Positions 18,343 through 63,458 of a stretch of 64,000 bases of DNA are shown piece by piece. Position numbers and translations under genes: made by a program. Numbering within the stretch: position 1 is the first letter of the stretch; the number at the start of each line of letters is the position of its first letter. The notes below the pieces were generated by a model. It ran no database searches, was not told the origin of the DNA, and worked only from the letters and a program-made list of their open reading frames with translations. This DNA is from a virus (lineage: Duplodnaviria; Caudoviricetes), in the IMG/VR virus record IMGVR_UViG_3300035520_001173, positions 20,061 to 84,060 of that record. One strand, given 5' to 3'.

Positions 18343-20313
18343 ATGGCAAAAAACAATAAAACAATATTCCAAAAGTTAACAGACGTTATTATTGGTACCA
18401 CGGGCTCGAATTTACAAACAAAGTCTATTGCAAATTATACTCTGAACGCCAATAATGATGTATTATATACATTTGGTTCAAAAGAGGAAAGAGATGCAAA
18501 GCTCAGGCAAATAAAACAAGAAAAACTTTTAGCACATCAATGGGCTAAAATCGGCTACGATACAAGCATGGAACAAATGGCAGGCGCCAATCAAGTTCGT
18601 GTTATGTATCGTGATTGCGACATGATGGATGCTTGGCCTGAAATTGGCTCCGCTCTTGATACTTATGCCGAAGAAGTTTGCAATATAGGCAAGAAAGGCA
18701 CTATCCTCAATATAAAATCCAAATCACCTCGAATTGTATCAATACTTGAAGATTTATTTGTGAACCGATTGGATATAGCTGTAATGCTTCCAATGGTCAC
18801 TCGTGCCACATGTAAATATGGCAACGAATTTATGTTTTTGAATATTGATGCTGAAAATGGCATTCTTGGATGGAGGGAATTACCGACTAAGGAAATTAGG
18901 CGTGTTGAAGATGGTATGATGAACGCCTATTCGGGTAATTACTCGGCATCGGCAACCAATCTCAAAACAAATGAAGTGAAATTTGTTTGGGAAGGCCATG
19001 ACGAAAGCGTTCCGTTTAAAAACTGGCAAATTGCCCACTTTAGGCTCATTAAAGATTCTATCTACTTGCCATACGGTGCCTCTGTTATGAATAAGGCAAG
19101 AAGACATTGGAGAATTCTATCAATGATGGAAGATTCAATGCTCCTTTATAGGCTTGAAAAAAGTGTTGAAAGGCGTATCTATAAAGTTAATGTTGGCTTG
19201 ATTGATGACCAAGACGTTCCTGCCTTCTTGCAGGAATTCATGAATAATGTAAAAAGGGCGCCTATTATTGACCCTCAAACAGGCCAAATAGACTTAAGAA
19301 AAAACTTCCTTGATGTTAGTGCAGATTACGTTATTCCTGTCAGAAGTGGGCAAGACCCGACGAGTATAGAGGTTTTGCAAAGCAATCAAAATCAACTTCA
19401 GATGTCTGATATCGAGTATATGCAAAATAAAGTACTTGCAGGTATGCGAGTGCCAAAAGCCATGCTCAACTATAGTGATGCACAAAACAAAGCCCAAAAC
19501 TTCTCTTTAATTGATATCAGATTTAATCGTGTGGTCAATAGCATACAACAGGCCATTATTATGGAGCTTAACAAGATTGCTATTATTCACCTTTACATAC
19601 TTGGTTTTACTGATGAATTGACTAATTTCACTTTGACGATGAATAATCCATCCAACCAAATTGAGATGTTGGAGCTTGATAATATGTCAAAGAGGATTAG
19701 TAATGCTACTGCTGCTTTAGCAGAGCAAGGTGGTGGTATTCCTCTAATGTCATGGCATAAAGTTCAAAAAGAAATCATGGGTTTAACTGATTCTGAAATA
19801 TCAGATATGCTTAACGAAATGAGGCTTGAAGTTGCTATTGCTAAGGAGCTTGAGAATACTCCTCAAATTATTAAAAAGACTGATTTATTCAAACAAGTAG
19901 ACCGAATTTACGGAGAACCTGGCGCCCATTATCAAGAAACACAAACTGAAGATGACGGCGGACAATTCGGCGGTGGTGGCGGAGGAATGCCCTCGCTCGG
20001 AGGTGGTGGTTTTGGAGATGATTTAGGTGATTTGGGAGAACCTGGCGCCGAGCCTGAAGGTGACATAGGCGGAGAGGAGGGCTCAGCTGATTTACAATCC
20101 ATGGGTGGAGACGAAAGCGGTGGTGGACAGCCGCTTAATGAGCGTTCTCAGCGCTTTCTAACCCTTTTGAATGAGTATAGTGCCTTAATTAATAAAGACG
20201 ATAGTGATAAAAAGAATATAGACATATACGATAAAGGTTTCTTAATTAATGAGTCATTAGATTCTGCAATAAAAAGTTTAGGAAACGGTGAAATAAAAGA
20301 GATTTTGAAATGA
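18343..20313 (+). CDS. portal protein (T4 gp20-like)
   Basis: MEDSMLLYRLEKSVERRIYKVNVG, DYVIPVR, DIEYMQNK...RVPK, DIRF motifs; Gly/Glu-rich C-terminal tail. Confidence 0.93.
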   Translation: MAKNNKTIFQKLTDVIIGTTGSNLQTKSIANYTLNANNDVLYTFGSKEERDAKLRQIKQEKLLAHQWAKIGYDTSMEQMAGANQVRVMYRDCDMMDAWPEIGSALDTYAEEVCNIGKKGTILNIKSKSPRIVSILEDLFVNRLDIAVMLPMVTRATCKYGNEFMFLNIDAENGILGWRELPTKEIRRVEDGMMNAYSGNYSASATNLKTNEVKFVWEGHDESVPFKNWQIAHFRLIKDSIYLPYGASVMNKARRHWRILSMMEDSMLLYRLEKSVERRIYKVNVGLIDDQDVPAFLQEFMNNVKRAPIIDPQTGQIDLRKNFLDVSADYVIPVRSGQDPTSIEVLQSNQNQLQMSDIEYMQNKVLAGMRVPKAMLNYSDAQNKAQNFSLIDIRFNRVVNSIQQAIIMELNKIAIIHLYILGFTDELTNFTLTMNNPSNQIEMLELDNMSKRISNATAALAEQGGGIPLMSWHKVQKEIMGLTDSEISDMLNEMRLEVAIAKELENTPQIIKKTDLFKQVDRIYGEPGAHYQETQTEDDGGQFGGGGGGMPSLGGGGFGDDLGDLGEPGAEPEGDIGGEEGSADLQSMGGDESGGGQPLNERSQRFLTLLNEYSALINKDDSDKKNIDIYDKGFLINESLDSAIKSLGNGEIKEILK

Positions 20314-55450: not shown

Positions 55451-57390
55451 TTAAAAACCAACAGCCTCACTACGTTCAATTTCACCAATGGTGTCTTGTT
55501 TTTTGTTTTCCATTGCATCAAGGATATCACGAAGTGTACCAATGCAGATTTCGGGATAAGTTTTTGACATCAAATCAAAAGAAGATGGGTCTAAGTCGGC
55601 AATTTTGAGAATTGAATTGGGTACAGTACCTTCCTCGATAAACTCAGATAATTCAGAAGAACTTAATTCATAGATAGCCTGCTCTAAACGCTGTTTTTCC
55701 TTATCAATGCCAAGCTCTTGTTCACGTTGCATCCTATTGTTATAGTCAGCAAGAATATCTTCCCACTTGCCCATACCACAAGGTTCAAGGAAAGGTGGTG
55801 TTAAACCATACTTAGACCAAAACTTAATCTCTTTATCTTCCATAGTCATAAGTTGCTCGTAAGTATCTTGATCACCAGGTTTATTTGGCTCACCATGAAC
55901 TAATGCGCATTCCTCTTCAGTGAAATATTTCCTGTCATCAGGATTGCTAACAAGAATTTTATCACGAATTTCTCGGCTAAAGCAAACCAATAAAGGGGTA
56001 ATGCGCTTGTTAAATGCGTCAATATACTTAACAGAGTTATACTCAAAACCTTCGTGGCAATAGACGTCTTCATCAGAGTCAATTACATCACGAGGCACAA
56101 GAACACAGTTAAGAATGATTTCTTCATCAACTCTTGCTGTTGGATAGTTTGCGGTTAACCACTCAGCCTTAGCAAGTTTGCGTTTGTTACCTTTATTTTC
56201 CTTATTGTATTTGTTGTACGCACGGTCAACCTCTTTTGAAATCTCGGTTCCGTCGGCATCGTAGTAATGAGTAACCTTTTTGACATCAGGATGAGATTTC
56301 AATTTGCCTGTATTGATATAATAGATGGTATCACCAGTATTAACTTCAAGACCTTCTTTTAAAACAAGCTCATACCAAGCCTGTCTTGATTTAGGCCTAC
56401 CTGCCTTGGTGATTTCTTTTATATCTTTTTGATATTGGGCAATAGTCTTTTTGATTTTACCTTTAGACGCAATATCCCTAATAGGAATTTTATAATTGTA
56501 TAGTTTTTCTATGTAATCATAATATTCCTTGATAAATGCCTTTCCATTGCCTTGCAAAAGGTATAGAATAGCCTTGTCCAAGAAATTTGCTATATAAGCA
56601 TTTAACCTCTTAGACTTTATAGTATTGCCCACGAGTTTCTTATCTTTTCCTGGCGGATTCTCAGGAAAGTAATCCGCATAATTCTTTCGTGCAAAGTTAA
56701 TGGTTGAAGCTACCACTTCATCGCTTTAATCAATGCCTTTTTCTATTTGCATTGTCAGACTATATCACCACCCTCAGCATTACCTGTTAGGGGCCTCCCG
56801 TTTCCACTATAAGATTCTACTTACAATGTACTCTACTAAGTGTAATCTCTTACCTGTTCGATAGTCGTTGAACCTTCATCTTAAAAAAGATGCTTGGATG
56901 CTTTTAGTTGATCTACCCACAATTAAGGTTTTTACGATAGAATAAGCATTACCTTATCTTCTTCATCAATGTCACCATAATAAAGTCGTACTCAATTGTT
57001 CGTTATGGGTTTTACCAGCAGTTAAAGAGGTTATTGCCCTAATGTTTCCATTAGGCGGCACCGTGTAAGCTAATGCCAAGTCCCATTTTTTGCACTCCAT
57101 CAGGGCTGTAGACATCCTTCATGTATAAATCATTGAATTCTGCTACATCAGCCTCGAAGCCTGTATATTCTTTACCGAGTTTTACTTCACGATTAGACCC
57201 CTTGCCAATGTAAGGGTTATCTTTCGTGTATCGGTATTTGCTTTCATCGGGGAGTTGGAAATTAAAGCCTTCAGCCATCGGTATTCTTGCATACCAACCC
57301 TGTATAAGCATCCACAAAGGTGCCATCCAAGGATATATCGTACACAAGAGTACCGATGCTTCCTTTTGCAATTTTTTTAGATGTTGCCAT
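55451..57390 (-). CDS. polB: family-B DNA polymerase, C-terminal half, fused to a split-intein C-fragment. Composite reading 57390-57274, 57266-57073, 56723-55451 (527 aa)
   Basis: Joined sequence gives ...VCKN/TDGFNFQLP...ADVAEFND...MGLGIDEVVASTINFARKNYAD..., i.e. PolB motif C and the K-NY motif followed by the thumb region. Confidence 0.8.
56724..57072 (-). mobile_element. group I intron (IA-like, 349 nt, no internal ORF)
   Basis: Exon ends in U, P1 GGCAU/GUGCC with U.G pair, P2 with GAAA loop, P4 UGCUGG/CCAAGCA, P7 GACUAU/AUAGUC, P9, terminal G. Removal restores GGC-ATC-GAT (GLGIDEV) in frame. Confidence 0.92.
57283..57390 (-). other. split intein C-fragment (36 aa)
   Basis: MATSKKIAKGSIGTLVYDISLDGTFVDAYTGLVCKN followed by T(+1)DG; block F VYDISL and terminal Asn. 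Confidence 0.8.
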
Positions 57391-57425
57391 TTATTATTTT
57401 ATTTATTGCGTTAAACAATTCACGA

Positions 57426-57433
57426 CAAAGATA
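57426..57433 (-). promoter_or_regulatory. Bacteroidota-type -7 element TATCTTTG
   Basis: 35 nt upstream of the intein-C/polB ATG; no clear -33 element. Confidence 0.55.
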
Positions 57434-57447
57434 CAAATATTAAATCA

Positions 57448-58548
57448 TTAATACCATGTGTTCTCAATCCAATTTTTAGACAGATATGGTAATTCTTGGA
57501 ATTTAGCTTGAACCGTGTATCCTGTCAACCATTTTATCGCACGAACATCTGTCGTTGTAATCTCATCATCTATTTTAATCACAGTTCCAGATATATTCAA
57601 ACAATCATTAGATGGGAATTTACATAGACCTGCTTTCAATAGGCCACATTGGTATTTTACACCATGGATTAACTCATAATTAAAGGGGATTTCAATATTA
57701 AGTTCAGCTTTTGTTTCATGGGATTTCTTATAACTCATACATTTATCTTTCATTGGGCAATCCCAACATCCAACTTCATTCGGCCTATAATAATGTGCAT
57801 TAGGGTCTCTTTGGAGATTATGAGTATACGCAATTAAGCATGAAGTCTTTCTAAAAATAGGAATATTATAAGACTTAGCAATTTCTCTCAGTCTATTATC
57901 TCTCTCATCAGATATAAATTTCTTCAATCCAAACTCATGTCCATCATACGGTTTGAAATGAATATCTTGACTTTCTAAATATTGTTTTAGTGAGGGGTTG
58001 ACCTGTAATCCTGAATACCCAATAGATGTTTTATATTCAGAAGCAGTTCGACATACAAAGTCAAAGACATCATCAGAGTCATTTACATCACGAATGATTG
58101 GTCTGAACTCAATGTTATACTTGTAATTGCTTTGAGAAATGACATCGAGATTGTGAATAAACCGTTTTAATGCATTGCCATCATAAGGAGAATCATAACC
58201 AAAAGTAGATAATCCAAAATGAAGGTTCAAGTCAAAAGTTTCCAAAATAGGAAACTTTGATATATCTCCTTTGGTAATTATGATAACTGGGCCTGTATGA
58301 CCAACACTTTCCAATCTCCTAAGTTTCTTTACAGTATCATCAACTTGCAAAAGAGGGTCACCATACATAAGGTTAATAGCAATAGGAAAACTTTTGAAGA
58401 TAGGATTGATTTCTTCTGGCAAAATATCATAGTTTAATTTGTCGGTTTCAATAGCTCGACAATACTTACAACCAAAACATTTATTTAGGCCATGTGAATA
58501 ACTGACGAAACTTTTTGTGAAATATAAATCTTTAATTAAATTGTCCAT
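57448..58548 (-). CDS. radical-SAM/SPL-like Fe-S protein with atypical CX2CX2C motif
   Basis: KCFGCKYC, YGDP, ITKG, RPII and a further Cys cluster at the C-terminus. Confidence 0.6.
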   Translation of the reverse strand: MDNLIKDLYFTKSFVSYSHGLNKCFGCKYCRAIETDKLNYDILPEEINPIFKSFPIAINLMYGDPLLQVDDTVKKLRRLESVGHTGPVIIITKGDISKFPILETFDLNLHFGLSTFGYDSPYDGNALKRFIHNLDVISQSNYKYNIEFRPIIRDVNDSDDVFDFVCRTASEYKTSIGYSGLQVNPSLKQYLESQDIHFKPYDGHEFGLKKFISDERDNRLREIAKSYNIPIFRKTSCLIAYTHNLQRDPNAHYYRPNEVGCWDCPMKDKCMSYKKSHETKAELNIEIPFNYELIHGVKYQCGLLKAGLCKFPSNDCLNISGTVIKIDDEITTTDVRAIKWLTGYTVQAKFQELPYLSKNWIENTWY

Positions 58549-58618: not shown

Positions 58619-59524
58619 TTAATATTTAAAGTTTTCAATATCACTCATAAAAAATTCTAGTTCACCACTGAGAATCGGATATTTCTTTTCCACTTTTACG
58701 GACTCTTCAAAACGTTGATATACTTCATTTAAATTAATATCATTTGGATATTTTATCTTATATAATTCATATGCGTTTTTATACTTTCGAAGCAGTCGGT
58801 TCTTGGCGAAGTGTATTCTATACATGAAGTTTTTATGGCTAATGCCATATTGGTTTATGACTTTACATACATTTTCATCAGATGATTTTTTAATATAATT
58901 TTCAGCATTCGTAAAGTGTGCAAATATAGTTTTATTTAGTGTATGTTCAAAACATTTTTTACTTTTGTTATTTATCAAATCCTTATAATATTGATGCACA
59001 AAAGCATCTTGTTCATGTTTAAAAGAGCAATACAAACAATAACCTATAGCTTGAGTTAGTGCATTTCTACTTGACGCTAACTTAATTGAAATATCATATA
59101 AATCTATATTCTTCTTAAGTCCTTGGGAATACTGGTACAAATGTGTCAATTCGTGAGCTATTGTCGATTTAAAGTTTGATATCATTTCACTATTAATCAT
59201 TATTGAAACAATATCAATCGACGCTGATTCATAATCTGCTTGCGAGTTAAAATTTATTCCTGAATACTTATATAATTTACTATATTGCTTTTCATCCGTT
59301 ACATATATAACATAACGAACAACGGTATTTTTCAAGTATTTAGAAAACCTACTTAAATCAAATACAAACCTGCCTTGTACAAATGGTATTTTTAAACCGA
59401 AATTGCTATTATATAAAACACTTCCGAATTTAATTGTATTATTAACTTCAGTGGTTATTCTGTTTGACAACATATCCGTAAAATTAATCACCACTGATGA
59501 TACGCTTTTCTCTTCTTTTATCAT
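58619..59524 (-). CDS. putative zincin-like metalloprotein
   Basis: IAHELTHLYQ (HExxH) and downstream HEQDA. Confidence 0.6.
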   Translation of the reverse strand: MIKEEKSVSSVVINFTDMLSNRITTEVNNTIKFGSVLYNSNFGLKIPFVQGRFVFDLSRFSKYLKNTVVRYVIYVTDEKQYSKLYKYSGINFNSQADYESASIDIVSIMINSEMISNFKSTIAHELTHLYQYSQGLKKNIDLYDISIKLASSRNALTQAIGYCLYCSFKHEQDAFVHQYYKDLINNKSKKCFEHTLNKTIFAHFTNAENYIKKSSDENVCKVINQYGISHKNFMYRIHFAKNRLLRKYKNAYELYKIKYPNDINLNEVYQRFEESVKVEKKYPILSGELEFFMSDIENFKY

Positions 59525-61014
59525 ATTTTAATATTTTTGTTATTCCAAATATATCTTATCAAACCGCAATCATATATCCTATATGCACCGATTTTATCTA
59601 CCATTTCAGTTTCGGTCATGCTCATTGGCAAATTGTACTTTTTACTTAAAATATTCTTTCTGAAATTGAATTTATGATATCGTTTTAAATTGAAATAATA
59701 ACTATATGTCGGTGTTGTATAGCCATCAAAACGAAATCCTAAATTAAGATAAACATTACTATTTTCATTAATGGTCCATCTTCTATCTGCAAAGGATTTA
59801 ATATAAGAAGGTTTATAGTTCTTAACGAAGTAATTAAAAAGTTTACCACCAATACCTTGACATATATAATGATAATCGGAAGCAAAACGTGTTAACTCCC
59901 ATCTATCACTACCTTTATACTCGCTCCTAAAGGACATTACGCCTATTAAAGCATCATTATAAAAAGCACCAAGATATATAGTCGCAGAACCGCATCCTTG
60001 AATGTGATATGTATCTAAGAATTCCTTACAATCTTTATGTGATAAAACCTTGATAACACACTTTCTACCCATAATTTTAGGTAATTCGTCAGAATGCTTT
60101 AGAAGATGCTTAATTTTATTTAAAACGATATCCTTATGCTCGGCATATTCGTCCTCAAAGATTTGAATTAATTTAATACCCTTCTTTTTGCACTCTTCAG
60201 TTTTTCTAATATGGTAGTGTTTATCTTTATTCATAGAACAATGCCAATAAAGTCCATTATATTCAATAGCAATCTTTTTATCGGGAATATACATATCAAG
60301 TTCTAATGGTGATATTATTGTTCTATCTCTTTGAATTGTTAATGATTCTAATGATTTAACATATTCAAATATTTCATTTTCAGCTTGAGATGAGATATTA
60401 GCGCATAAAGGACAGCCATGACCACGCATGTGACTATGAGGAGTTTGATAAAAATCACCATGTACGGGGCACGTCACCACAACTTTACCATTATCATCCT
60501 TATTATCTAAATCTGTTTTATTATAGAAATAATAACCGTTATGTATTTCTTTTGCTCTACTGATAAATTCCTCGGTATTCATTTTATTTATTTTAGAGAC
60601 TTTTTCAGCCATACATTTGGGACAACCATGGCCTTTCAGATGGTCATGAGGAACTTGCTTAAAGAGTCCATGCTTAGGACAGATTATTTCAATCGAGGTG
60701 TAAGCATTTTTGTATTCTTGTTTTGGATATGTATAAAAACTTTGATGAACGTTATTTGCTTGGCCTACAAACTCTTCAAAAGATTTTTTAGTTTTACTTG
60801 CACATACATCTCGTCCGCATTTAGTGCAGCCATGACCTCTTAAATGATTTTTCGGAGTTTGCCAAAACTCTCCATGTATAGGACAAATAATACAGACTTT
60901 CTCAGTATTATTCTTATACTCTATTTTAGAGTAATCATATTTATCACCGTGAAGTTCTTTAGCCTTTCTTAAAAAATCTTGTACTTTTAGAGCTTTAGTC
61001 ATGTTTATTGTCAA
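59521..61014 (-). mobile_element. putative homing endonuclease: 3 Zn-finger repeats, PD-(D/E)xK-type nuclease and GNAT/Mom-like C-terminal domain
   Basis: CPxHG...H..GxGCxxC x3; ELDMYIP..KIAIEYNGLYWH; ELTRFAS...SFADRRW...LGF. Confidence 0.75.
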
Positions 61015-61185: not shown

Positions 61186-61674
61186 ATGGCAGATTTGCTT
61201 TTAAACATGCCCTTGCAGTTCGAGCCATTAAAGAAAAACCGTTGGGTTGTGCGCTTTCCAAGTGACCTTGGTATTTCGGAATGGATGTTAAAATCTGCTG
61301 CAAGGCCTAAAATTAATCAAAATGAAAAAGAAATCCAATTCTTGAACACCTCTACTTGGGTAGTTGGTCGTTATACTTGGGATAGCTTAAGTTTGACCTT
61401 TCGAGATGCAATTGCTCCATCGACCTCACAAGCTCTCATGGAATGGATACGCTTACACTCAGAATCTGTAACAGGCCGTCAAGGTTACGCTGCAGGCTAT
61501 AAACGAGATTTAGAGTTGGAAATGCTTGACCCAACAGGTGTATGCGTTCAAAAATGGATTTTGAAAAATGCATGGATTGTCACTACAGACTTCGGTAGTC
61601 TTGATTATGGCGATGATGAATTGGCAGACATTACAGCAACAATCCGTATGGACTATGCAGTTCTCTGTTACTAA
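61186..61674 (+). CDS. tail tube protein (T4 gp19-like)
   Basis: FEPLKKNRW...ARP...FLN..WVVGRYTWD..LTFRD...MEW...LEMLDPTG...W.LKNAW...FGSLDY. Confidence 0.88.
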   Translation: MADLLLNMPLQFEPLKKNRWVVRFPSDLGISEWMLKSAARPKINQNEKEIQFLNTSTWVVGRYTWDSLSLTFRDAIAPSTSQALMEWIRLHSESVTGRQGYAAGYKRDLELEMLDPTGVCVQKWILKNAWIVTTDFGSLDYGDDELADITATIRMDYAVLCY

Positions 61675-61766: not shown

Positions 61767-63458
61767 TTATTTAAATTCCATTTTATAGCATAAACAGCCA
61801 CAGTCGTATATTCTGAACCACCCTTGTGATTTACAGAATTCACGTTCTGACATTTCAGGAGGGCAGCCGAATTTTTCTATAAGGACTTGTTTTCTGAAGT
61901 TAAAACGATAAACTCTTTTGCCTTTGTAAATATAGTAATAATTAGGCTTGGACTTGTTATATAATTCAAAACCTAATTTTTCATATAAGTTACCATTTGA
62001 CCATCTTCTATCTGCATAACTAACAAGACTTGAGGGTTCGTAATCTTCGATGAAATGCTTTAATAAACGGCTTGCCCCACCGATTACGTTTGTATTTAGC
62101 TTATTGCAGAATCTGAGTAATTCCCATTCAAATTTGCCACTACCCACAAAATGTCTTGACTTACCAAATGTCATCAAAGAAACTAATTCATCATTAAAAT
62201 AAAGCCCTAATTTAACCGAAGAGCCACAAGCACCCTGTAAGTGATTTGAATTTAAGAAGGCTGTGGCATCGGAAGCCGAAACTTCTTTGATGATACAATT
62301 TCTTGCATAAATATGAGTTTCAACTTTAGCTAAAATACTACAAATCATAGATTTAACAATTTCAGGCTTATTTTTCCATTCATCTTCGAAAATATGGAAA
62401 AGTCTAATGCCCCGTTCTTCACAACGGACAGTTTTCTTTAAATGAAAATCGAATTCTTTACGGGCGTCAGAGTGCCAATACAAGCCGTTATATTCAATAC
62501 CAAAATTACATGAAGGAACATAGATGTCTATTTCGTCACCTTTTAGTATTCTCCTCTCACGTTGCTTTACATTTTCGGAACCTATCAACTCGCATATAAA
62601 GTTATATAGCTCATCTTCCCCTCTTGAATGTGCGAAAGAACAAGAAGGGCAACGATAACCAAGAAATAGATGGTTTGCAGCGTCCATTTCAAATGGCCCA
62701 TGTTTTTTACAGACAATAGTTACTTTTCCACTTTGGGACGTGTAACTATCAGGTAGATATTCATACTCATTATTATGGGCGGCTTTTGCTCTTTGCACAT
62801 ACTCCTCAAAAGGTATTGTACGAGTTTCAGCGCATTTTCTAATTCCGCATTTTGGACAACCCTGCTTGCCTTTTATATGGTTATTAAATGTCTGGTAAAA
62901 TATTCCATGTTCGGGGCATATTATTGGGTATTTAATTCTATCGTTCTTATATTCAGTTATTTGTGAATAATCATATTTGTTATTATGGGTTTCATTAGCA
63001 ATTGCAACAACTTCTTCGATTGTCCGTCGTTTACTTGAAGCCGATTTTATATAGCGGCATTTAGGGCAACCCTGCCCACTCAGGAGGTGTCCTGGTGTTA
63101 TTTCAAAATCCCCATGCTCTTGACCGTTTTCTTCTTTGCAATGGCATGTAATAACAACCTTTGCGTGGTTCGTTTTGTACTTTGTTTTTTCAAACGTAAA
63201 ATTTGAACAATCTACCTTTTTCCTTGCCTTATCTATAAATTCCTCGTTAGTGTATCTTTTTCGGCCTGAACACTCAGGGCAACCCTGTTTCATGTTTATA
63301 TGTTTCTGAAAAGACTTATAAAACACACCGTGCTCAGGGCACCTTATGGGTACTTTCTGTTTTCTCATGGTATAAGTAGCCTCATCGATTAGAGAATAGT
63401 CATATTTATCGCCATGAATTGTTTTCGCTATAGCAATATCTTCTTTTAAATTAGCCAT
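61767..63458 (-). mobile_element. paralogous putative homing endonuclease: 4 Zn-finger repeats, nuclease and GNAT/Mom-like domain
   Basis: CPEHG...GCPxC repeats; EIDIYVP..FGIEYNGLYWH; ELLRFC...GGASRLL...SYADRRW. Confidence 0.75.

Follow-up and report, generated by a model that had tools for sequence, protein, structure and literature searches.

The closest described counterparts of the locus reported here are fractured genes, in which the two halves of a split intein flank a free-standing homing endonuclease gene (Dassa et al., 2009; PMC2677866), and the split inteins of family-B DNA polymerases (PolB). Among the latter, the Neq Pol intein of Nanoarchaeum equitans (NEQ068 and NEQ528; PDB 5OXX and 5OXZ) lies at the pol-c or position III site, xxD|TDG, an insertion site common to archaeal, Mimivirus and N. 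equitans PolB (PMC549080). Phage examples are Aes123 PolB1 from Aeromonas T4-like phages, which is split into 120 + 39 aa (PMC11923092), the split PolB intein of jumbo phage MIJ3, with an HNH gene between the halves (PMC6892783), and PolB16 OarG from a sheep gut metagenome, with an atypical split of 15 + 168 aa (PMC10189870). Here, we describe a 36-residue C-terminal split-intein fragment (IntC) encoded in the IMG/VR virus record IMGVR_UViG_3300035520_001173. The whole stretch analysed, hereafter called the window, comprises 64,000 nucleotides (positions 20,061 to 84,060 of the record) and is the final 64 kb of a linear contig of 84,060 bp, estimated to represent ~24% of the phage genome. With a probability of roughly three in four, IntC is part of a naturally split class-1 pol-c intein and opens the C-half gene of a jumbo-phage PolB, i.e., one half of a fractured gene.

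The locus resembles the genes described by Dassa et al. (2009) in that the host gene appears to be broken at the endonuclease position of the intein, that IntC measures ~35 aa and has its own start, and that free-standing endonuclease genes are located upstream of the C-half in phage-like DNA. It differs in that the endonucleases are HNH-type proteins with a GNAT/Mom-like domain and not Vsr-like, in a spacer of 6.6 kb or more that contains several endonuclease copies together with cargo genes (tail tube, radical-SAM-like), in the ~75-aa LAGLIDADG remnant kept on the N-terminal intein fragment (IntN) of the relatives, and in the host gene, which is PolB. With the Neq Pol intein, the window family shares the insertion site, the Ser1/Thr+1 chemistry and a short IntC. 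However, the Neq Pol intein is archaeal and thermophilic, its halves are unlinked, it has no endonuclease gene, and its penultimate residue is His; the similarity is marginal (E 0.09). Like the window family, Aes123 PolB1, the MIJ3 intein and PolB16 are naturally split, Ser-start, cysteine-independent inteins of phage family-B polymerase genes, although PolB16 is inserted two residues further on (GDTD|S). The window intein differs from these phage inteins in its D|T junction with Thr at +1 and in its penultimate Lys, and it showed no BLAST similarity to cultured-phage records.

The C-half gene and its surroundings are organized as follows, in the direction of reading:

57391 to 57447, minus strand: intergenic leader of IntC, with TATCTTTG at 57426-57433, a promoter candidate only.
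57283 to 57390, minus strand: IntC, 36 codons from Met to the terminal Asn, with block F VYDISLDG and block G GLVCKN; profile match with E 9.8e-8.
57274 to 57282, minus strand: start of the C-extein with codons for Thr-Asp-Gly, which form the latter part of motif C of PolB (xGD|TDG); the same TDG follows VGD in intein-less relatives.
57270 to 57273, minus strand: break of 4 nt (TGA + A) between two GGC codons.
57072 to 57269, minus strand: C-extein segment 2, 66 codons (GFNF...MGLGI), up to 82% identical to relatives.
56723 to 57071, minus strand: interruption of 349 nt, a candidate group I intron.
55451 to 56722, minus strand: C-extein segment 3 (exon 3), 423 codons and a stop; PolB C-terminal region.

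IntC is encoded by a 39-codon open reading frame (ORF) on the minus strand (57390-57271 including the stop), which reads M-A-T-S-K-K...V-Y-D-I-S-L-D-G...V-C-K-N-T-D-G-stop and in which the terminal Asn is followed by Thr at +1 (C-K-N | T-D-G). The size of this ORF alone is not significant, as 94 ORFs of at least 30 aa are found within 14 kb. A preliminary description of the stretch had claimed a 36-aa split-intein C-fragment with blocks F and G, a terminal Asn and the +1 Thr of motif C, and the span it assigned, 57283-57390, corresponds precisely to the 36 codons from Met through Asn. This claim is borne out by a profile hidden Markov model (HMM) of the C-terminal 30 residues of seven contiguous inteins found in PolB of related phages, from which extein residues were excluded. 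Among the 1,644 open frames of the window, the frame at 57390 was the sole match (E 9.8e-8, 28 bits), with the runner-up at E 0.84, and the alignment to blocks F and G stopped precisely at Asn36, the terminal Asn. Furthermore, tblastn found the IntC peptide immediately before TDG-FNF in more than 25 related loci. In an alignment of 23 IntC sequences (A1), V16, D18, S20, T24 and T-D-G show no variation, and the terminal Asn is almost invariant. The profile of this alignment had NEQ528, the Neq Pol IntC, as its top match in the whole PDB sequence set, which agrees with the likeness to the Nanoarchaeum split PolB intein suggested earlier and with the common pol-c site. A pooled pN/pS of 0.25, at a pS close to saturation, shows purifying selection on the IntC core in the split state. 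A chance ORF at 57390 was rejected on the basis of the sole HMM match in the window and the conservation in relatives. Sequence comparison confirms the 57390 ORF as the C-terminal fragment of a split intein that is fused, within motif C, to the C-half of PolB.

In a set of 1.8 billion representatives, 337 sequences are related to exon 3. By length, they form three classes, of ~1,070-1,190, ~1,430-1,610 and ~490-575 aa; in the last class, the match begins near residue 100. Exon 3 corresponds to the C-terminal 400 aa of PolB proteins of 1,070-1,600 aa, and its PolB identity rests on these full-length relatives, since no piece of the C-half, exon 3 included, has a match in Pfam or PHROG. Exon 3 and the IntN of a relative found no match among cultured phage records (tblastn). 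Eighty related viral contigs, several of them 345-393 kb long, were examined, and the N-extein, IntN, the LAGLIDADG part, IntC and the exons were mapped on all related loci. Three allelic states are directly visible: 49 loci have no intein, eight have a contiguous intein and 19 are split (16 distinct tree rows). Intein-less relatives read PIVGD-TDGFNF, and both contiguous and split inteins are located exactly between D and T, i.e., at xxD|TDx of motif C, the pol-c site. In the split state, a Met is located 33-36 aa ahead of N|TDG in each of the 15 distinct IntC genes, with a stop just upstream, so that the own ATG mentioned in the preliminary description is a conserved property of the family.

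The contiguous relatives P0004 and P0005 contain PolB exo, PolB, LAGLIDADG_3 and Intein_splicing domains; P0004 passes the cut-off of TIGR01445 (intein_Nterm) and matches PF14890 below the cut-off. Their intein measures 355-358 aa and has Ser1, TEDH in block B, two LAGLIDADG motifs, VYDIS in block F and HN|TDG at its end. Its closest solved relative is PI-PkoII, the Thermococcus kodakarensis Pol intein (PDB 2CW7), with which the C-terminus could be aligned. PI-PkoII likewise has a LAGLIDADG domain and a C-terminus reading YVYDLS...AHN and, unlike the split state, is contiguous; it is archaeal, and the match is weak (E 0.0034). The three states are dispersed over the exon 3 tree, on which the split state requires a minimum of 11 changes. 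This distribution fits an element that is actively moving or frequently lost. One set of loci is worth mentioning by itself: L022 and L026 (split) and L024 (contiguous; L024:6761-11281) have near-identical exteins, with 98% identity of the N-extein. Whereas L022 and L026 carry a split intein and a free-standing HNH/GNAT gene, L024 carries a contiguous LAGLIDADG intein, and together they form a before-and-after pair for the fracture.

A separate N-half ORF is present in 12 distinct split loci and consists of an N-extein of ~650 aa ending in xVGD (mostly PIVGD), followed by an IntN that measures 175-192 aa and in which Ser1, R-H and T-x-D-H (TEDH) do not vary. The R-H corresponds to the NX motif (R/K-H) described for Ser1 inteins (PMC10189870). 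These IntN sequences are longer than ~100 aa (e.g., L018:7033-7608). The additional C-terminal ~75 aa (...DRVP..LN....F..FMEN....YSKTCLAGLQYLK) can be aligned with the second of the LAGLIDADG regions in the contiguous intein, suggesting that a degenerate endonuclease remnant stays on IntN. In the record behind L018 (G001), a second, weak IntN-like match was noted at C1:61005-61199 (E 3e-5), at a distance of ~55 kb from the polymerase, and probably represents an intein of a different gene.

The residues kept in both fragments are relevant to the question of whether the intein halves splice or just clasp two polymerase chains together non-covalently. The latter would be in line with an IntC such as that of the window, which has no penultimate His and is diverged in block G. 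However, Ser1, the R-H of the NX motif and T-x-x-H are found in 12 of 12 IntN sequences of the relatives, the block F Asp, the terminal Asn and the +1 Thr are kept in the window, and IntC is under purifying selection. Moreover, the catalytic DTD motif would remain divided between two chains. A purely non-covalent role is quite improbable in our view.

For the splicing intein that we favor, the docking, the splicing, the bypass and the position of the N-half of this phage are inferred as follows. An ancestral contiguous LAGLIDADG intein between the Asp and Thr of VGD|TDG would have been broken at the endonuclease position, and free-standing HNH-type endonuclease genes, together with some cargo genes, would now lie between the halves. 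A same-strand upstream gene past the contig end would encode an N-extein of ~650 aa ending in PIVGD and an IntN of ~185 aa, expected to have Ser1, RH as its NX motif, TEDH as block B and a LAGLIDADG-region remnant. From the gene with its start at 57390, IntC-TDG and the remaining ~490 aa would be made, which would require bypass of 4 nt and removal of the 349-nt intron. IntN and IntC would dock into a single HINT fold, and Ser1, Thr+1 and Asn36 would then drive class-1 oxyester trans-splicing to yield ...PIVGD-TDGFNF..., with a complete catalytic motif C. Splicing would thus unite both catalytic aspartates of motif C in one chain.

The 4-nt break, after which reading resumes in a shifted frame with GFNF, is not confined to the window. 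Breaks of 2-5 nt after TDG were found in L003 (650-654), L010 (9795-9796), L031 (9822-9826), L032 (9792-9796) and L033 (670-674), which are all split loci. A stop-containing break at this position is present in 6 of 17 distinct split alleles, whereas none of the 50 alleles with a contiguous intein or no intein has one (Fisher p 1.2e-4, uncorrected for kinship). It always lies between two GGY codons, which fits take-off and landing sites of a translational bypass. The break was mostly seen in an IntC subtype with ...SKK...VVYD. It may travel with the intein/endonuclease cassette, and in that case might protect the target site; the mobA/gene 60 bypass of phage T4 is an example of a break that travels with an endonuclease cassette.

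The same distribution of breaks among the alleles has to be considered in the light of another explanation, i.e., that the stop is obeyed. IntC-TDG would then be a minigene product of 39 aa that trans-splices three residues onto the N chain and completes motif C, with the C-terminal part of the polymerase as a third, separate chain bound non-covalently. The restriction of the stop after TDG to split alleles suits this explanation, as does an in-frame ATG (M-A-E-G-F-N-F) that overlaps the break in the window. However, four of the six broken alleles have no in-frame start codon nearby, and the invariable position between two GGY codons is what bypass would predict. We consider a separate minigene very improbable. 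As an independent start of the C-half, the ATG of MAEGFNF was rejected, since it is not kept in the other broken alleles.

The second interruption of the C-half is the 349-nt insert. The Rfam model Intron_gpI matched it weakly (56743-57081, 16.5 bits, E 0.37), and uninterrupted relatives read GLG[IV]-DE across the insertion point. When the three segments are joined, the reconstituted C-extein has 3 + 66 + 423 = 492 aa, versus 490-501 aa in uninterrupted relatives. Gaps of ~340-350 nt between exons 2 and 3 were observed at the same place in L006 (9664-10000) and L027 (9637-9988), both of which are split. The candidate group I intron of the C-half apparently recurs in these other lineages. As the gene is interrupted three times within 2 kb, by the split, by the 4-nt break and by the 349-nt insert, and an N-half was not found on the contig, the C-half might be viewed as a decaying relic of a polymerase gene wrecked by mobile elements. 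Yet, all coding segments are open, of full length and 54-82% identical to intact relatives, and the same interruptions recur in diverged relatives. Of the explanations considered, decay is the one to which we give least credence.

Several points weigh against a functional split intein in a fractured polymerase gene. The support is sequence-based. The stop codon directly follows TDG, and the covalent linkage of IntC to the C-extein therefore hinges on a putative bypass. The match of the IntC profile to NEQ528 is weak (E 0.09), as expected for a profile that spans just 38 positions, and searches of the 39-aa peptide on its own against Pfam, NCBIfam and PHROG gave no match owing to its shortness. 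Block G of the window is the most diverged of the IntC family (37-54% identity), and the penultimate residue is Lys, neither His nor Ser. A penultimate His is common in class-1 inteins, but is not obligatory. In the relatives, this residue is Ser in most cases and His in others, and Lys is also found in L027. The allele of L027 is peculiar in another respect, as it ends in Lys-Gln instead of x-Asn before TDG (L027:9331-9438), making Gln the terminal intein residue. The preliminary description had named the penultimate Lys and the +1 Thr as features that make IntC a potentially new trans-splicing tool; the former is indeed uncommon, but the latter is standard for the pol-c intein allele. Lastly, no PolB N-half or IntN was found in the window, including the 6.6 kb upstream of IntC, as had been stated before, or in the whole 84,060-bp contig, in searches with the PF00136 family, with an N-half protein of 776 aa and, over all frames, with HMMs of IntN and the N-extein applied without filters. 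No contig overlapping the contig end was found either in the metagenome_contigs and viral_contigs sets by exact 30-mers taken near that end.

The sequence between IntC and the contig end, which lies 6.6 kb upstream of the IntC ATG, contains the following features, listed in order from the contig end:

63778 to 63999, minus strand: 5'-truncated ORF of 73 aa at the contig end, neither IntN nor PolB.
61767 to 63458, minus strand: second HNH-type endonuclease/GNAT-Mom-like gene, 563 aa; phrog_559, E 7e-144.
61186 to 61674, plus strand: tail tube gene (T4 gp19-like), on the opposite strand inside the spacer.
59521 to 61014, minus strand: free-standing HNH-type endonuclease gene, 497 aa, with a GNAT/Mom-like C-terminal domain; phrog_559, E 2e-120.
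58619 to 59524, minus strand: 301-aa gene, with a distant relative between IntN and IntC in locus L013.
57448 to 58548, minus strand: 366-aa gene directly upstream of IntC, a radical-SAM/spore-photoproduct-lyase-like candidate.

Thus, two predicted free-standing homing endonuclease genes are present upstream of IntC. In 10 of the 12 relatives in which both halves were located, one to three HNH-type genes related to the 497- and 563-aa proteins lie between the halves; the spacers without such a gene are those of L007 and L013. In all 12, the N-half is upstream of the C-half on the same strand, at a distance of 1.0-7.5 kb from IntN stop to IntC ATG, and in the complete genome of 392.8 kb behind L018, the halves are 2.1 kb apart. 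A parallel to the window is L010, where a spacer of 7.5 kb holds three HNH genes and a tail tube gene in the same position and relative orientation, with the N-half at the far side. The preliminary description had called IntC an orphan, unlike typical phage fractured genes. This characterization is not supported: the two HNH-type genes upstream are intact and belong to the same family as those between the halves of the relatives, the N-half of L010 lies farther upstream than the 6.6 kb available here, with the same tail tube gene in between, and the contig, which comprises ~24% of the genome, ends within this distance. Its orphan status is most likely an artefact of truncation at the contig end, and the N-half is expected just past it. 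A search for relatives of the terminal 73-aa ORF found none.

Alternatively, the N-half may be truly unlinked and located far off in the genome, as in the case of N. equitans PolB or cyanobacterial DnaE, after linkage was lost. Indeed, no N-half was found over the 84 kb, including at least 6.6 kb upstream of IntC, the spacer of the window is already near the largest among the relatives, and uncoupling is the end point of gene breaking as proposed by Dassa et al. (PMC2677866). In contrast, the halves are close together and on the same strand in 12 of 12 relatives, the spacer of the window is syntenic with that of L010, and the contig, which covers 24% of the genome, breaks off within the spacer. 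Unlinked inteins of the Neq Pol and cyanobacterial DnaE type have no intervening endonuclease; in the window, endonuclease genes are present upstream of IntC, and the contig ends before any N-half appears. An unlinked N-half is unlikely, although it is the least improbable of the alternatives to a fractured gene with nearby halves.

Some further properties of the spacer may be mentioned. A tail tube gene within the polymerase spacer, flanked by HNH/GNAT genes, is found in two diverged phages (window 61186-61674, plus strand; L010 7267-7755, minus strand), and in L005 and L062, its homologue is placed elsewhere relative to the polymerase. The 366-aa gene contains a CxxCxxC motif; ESM Atlas groups its product with radical-SAM/spore-photoproduct-lyase-like proteins (score 0.99), with a TM value of 0.86 to viral clusters. 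It had no match in Pfam, NCBIfam or PHROG and no relative in the 80 related loci, and its assignment as radical-SAM/spore-photoproduct-lyase-like is a lead only. The preliminary description had also assigned a host-type promoter to the IntC ORF. A motif match, TATCTTTG (TAnnTTTG), is present at 57426-57433, between the stop codon of the 366-aa gene (57448-57450) and the IntC ATG at 57390, but the motif is not enriched, with 98 occurrences in the window versus 94.8 expected. The motif leaves the promoter reading neither supported nor excluded.

With regard to the phages concerned, the part of the publication on Jug (jumbo gut) phages of Bacteroides/Phocaeicola that was used here reports genomes of 360-402 kb, in which group I introns, inteins and stand-alone HNH endonucleases frequently split genes, including that for DNA polymerase (PMC12880540). 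The relatives of the window, at 345-393 kb, are likewise large, a likeness that is one of description. The same part reports the splits, but contains no description of split-intein halves or of three allelic states. As phage split PolB inteins are already in use as tools (Aes123 PolB1 and PolB16), the suggestion of a potentially new trans-splicing tool is not supported. Also the layout itself is known. Distinct here are the sequence family, the HNH/GNAT-type endonucleases, the long, cargo-bearing spacer, the LAGLIDADG remnant on the IntN of the relatives, the penultimate Lys and the recoding gap three codons past the junction. Split inteins that do not depend on cysteine are rare and in demand for protein engineering (PMC11923092), and the Ser1/Thr+1 family would add more than 15 natural candidate variants with a canonical split position.

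With the analysis, a 39-codon ORF that had no annotation is recognized as a defined part of an essential gene. The case also illustrates that domain models and gene callers miss such polymerases, as the C-half has no Pfam match. The related contigs constitute a natural series at one site, comprising alleles with no intein, with a contiguous LAGLIDADG intein, and with a split intein plus free-standing HNH genes. Within this series, the comparison of L024 with L022 and L026 directly illustrates the gene-breaking model of Dassa et al.

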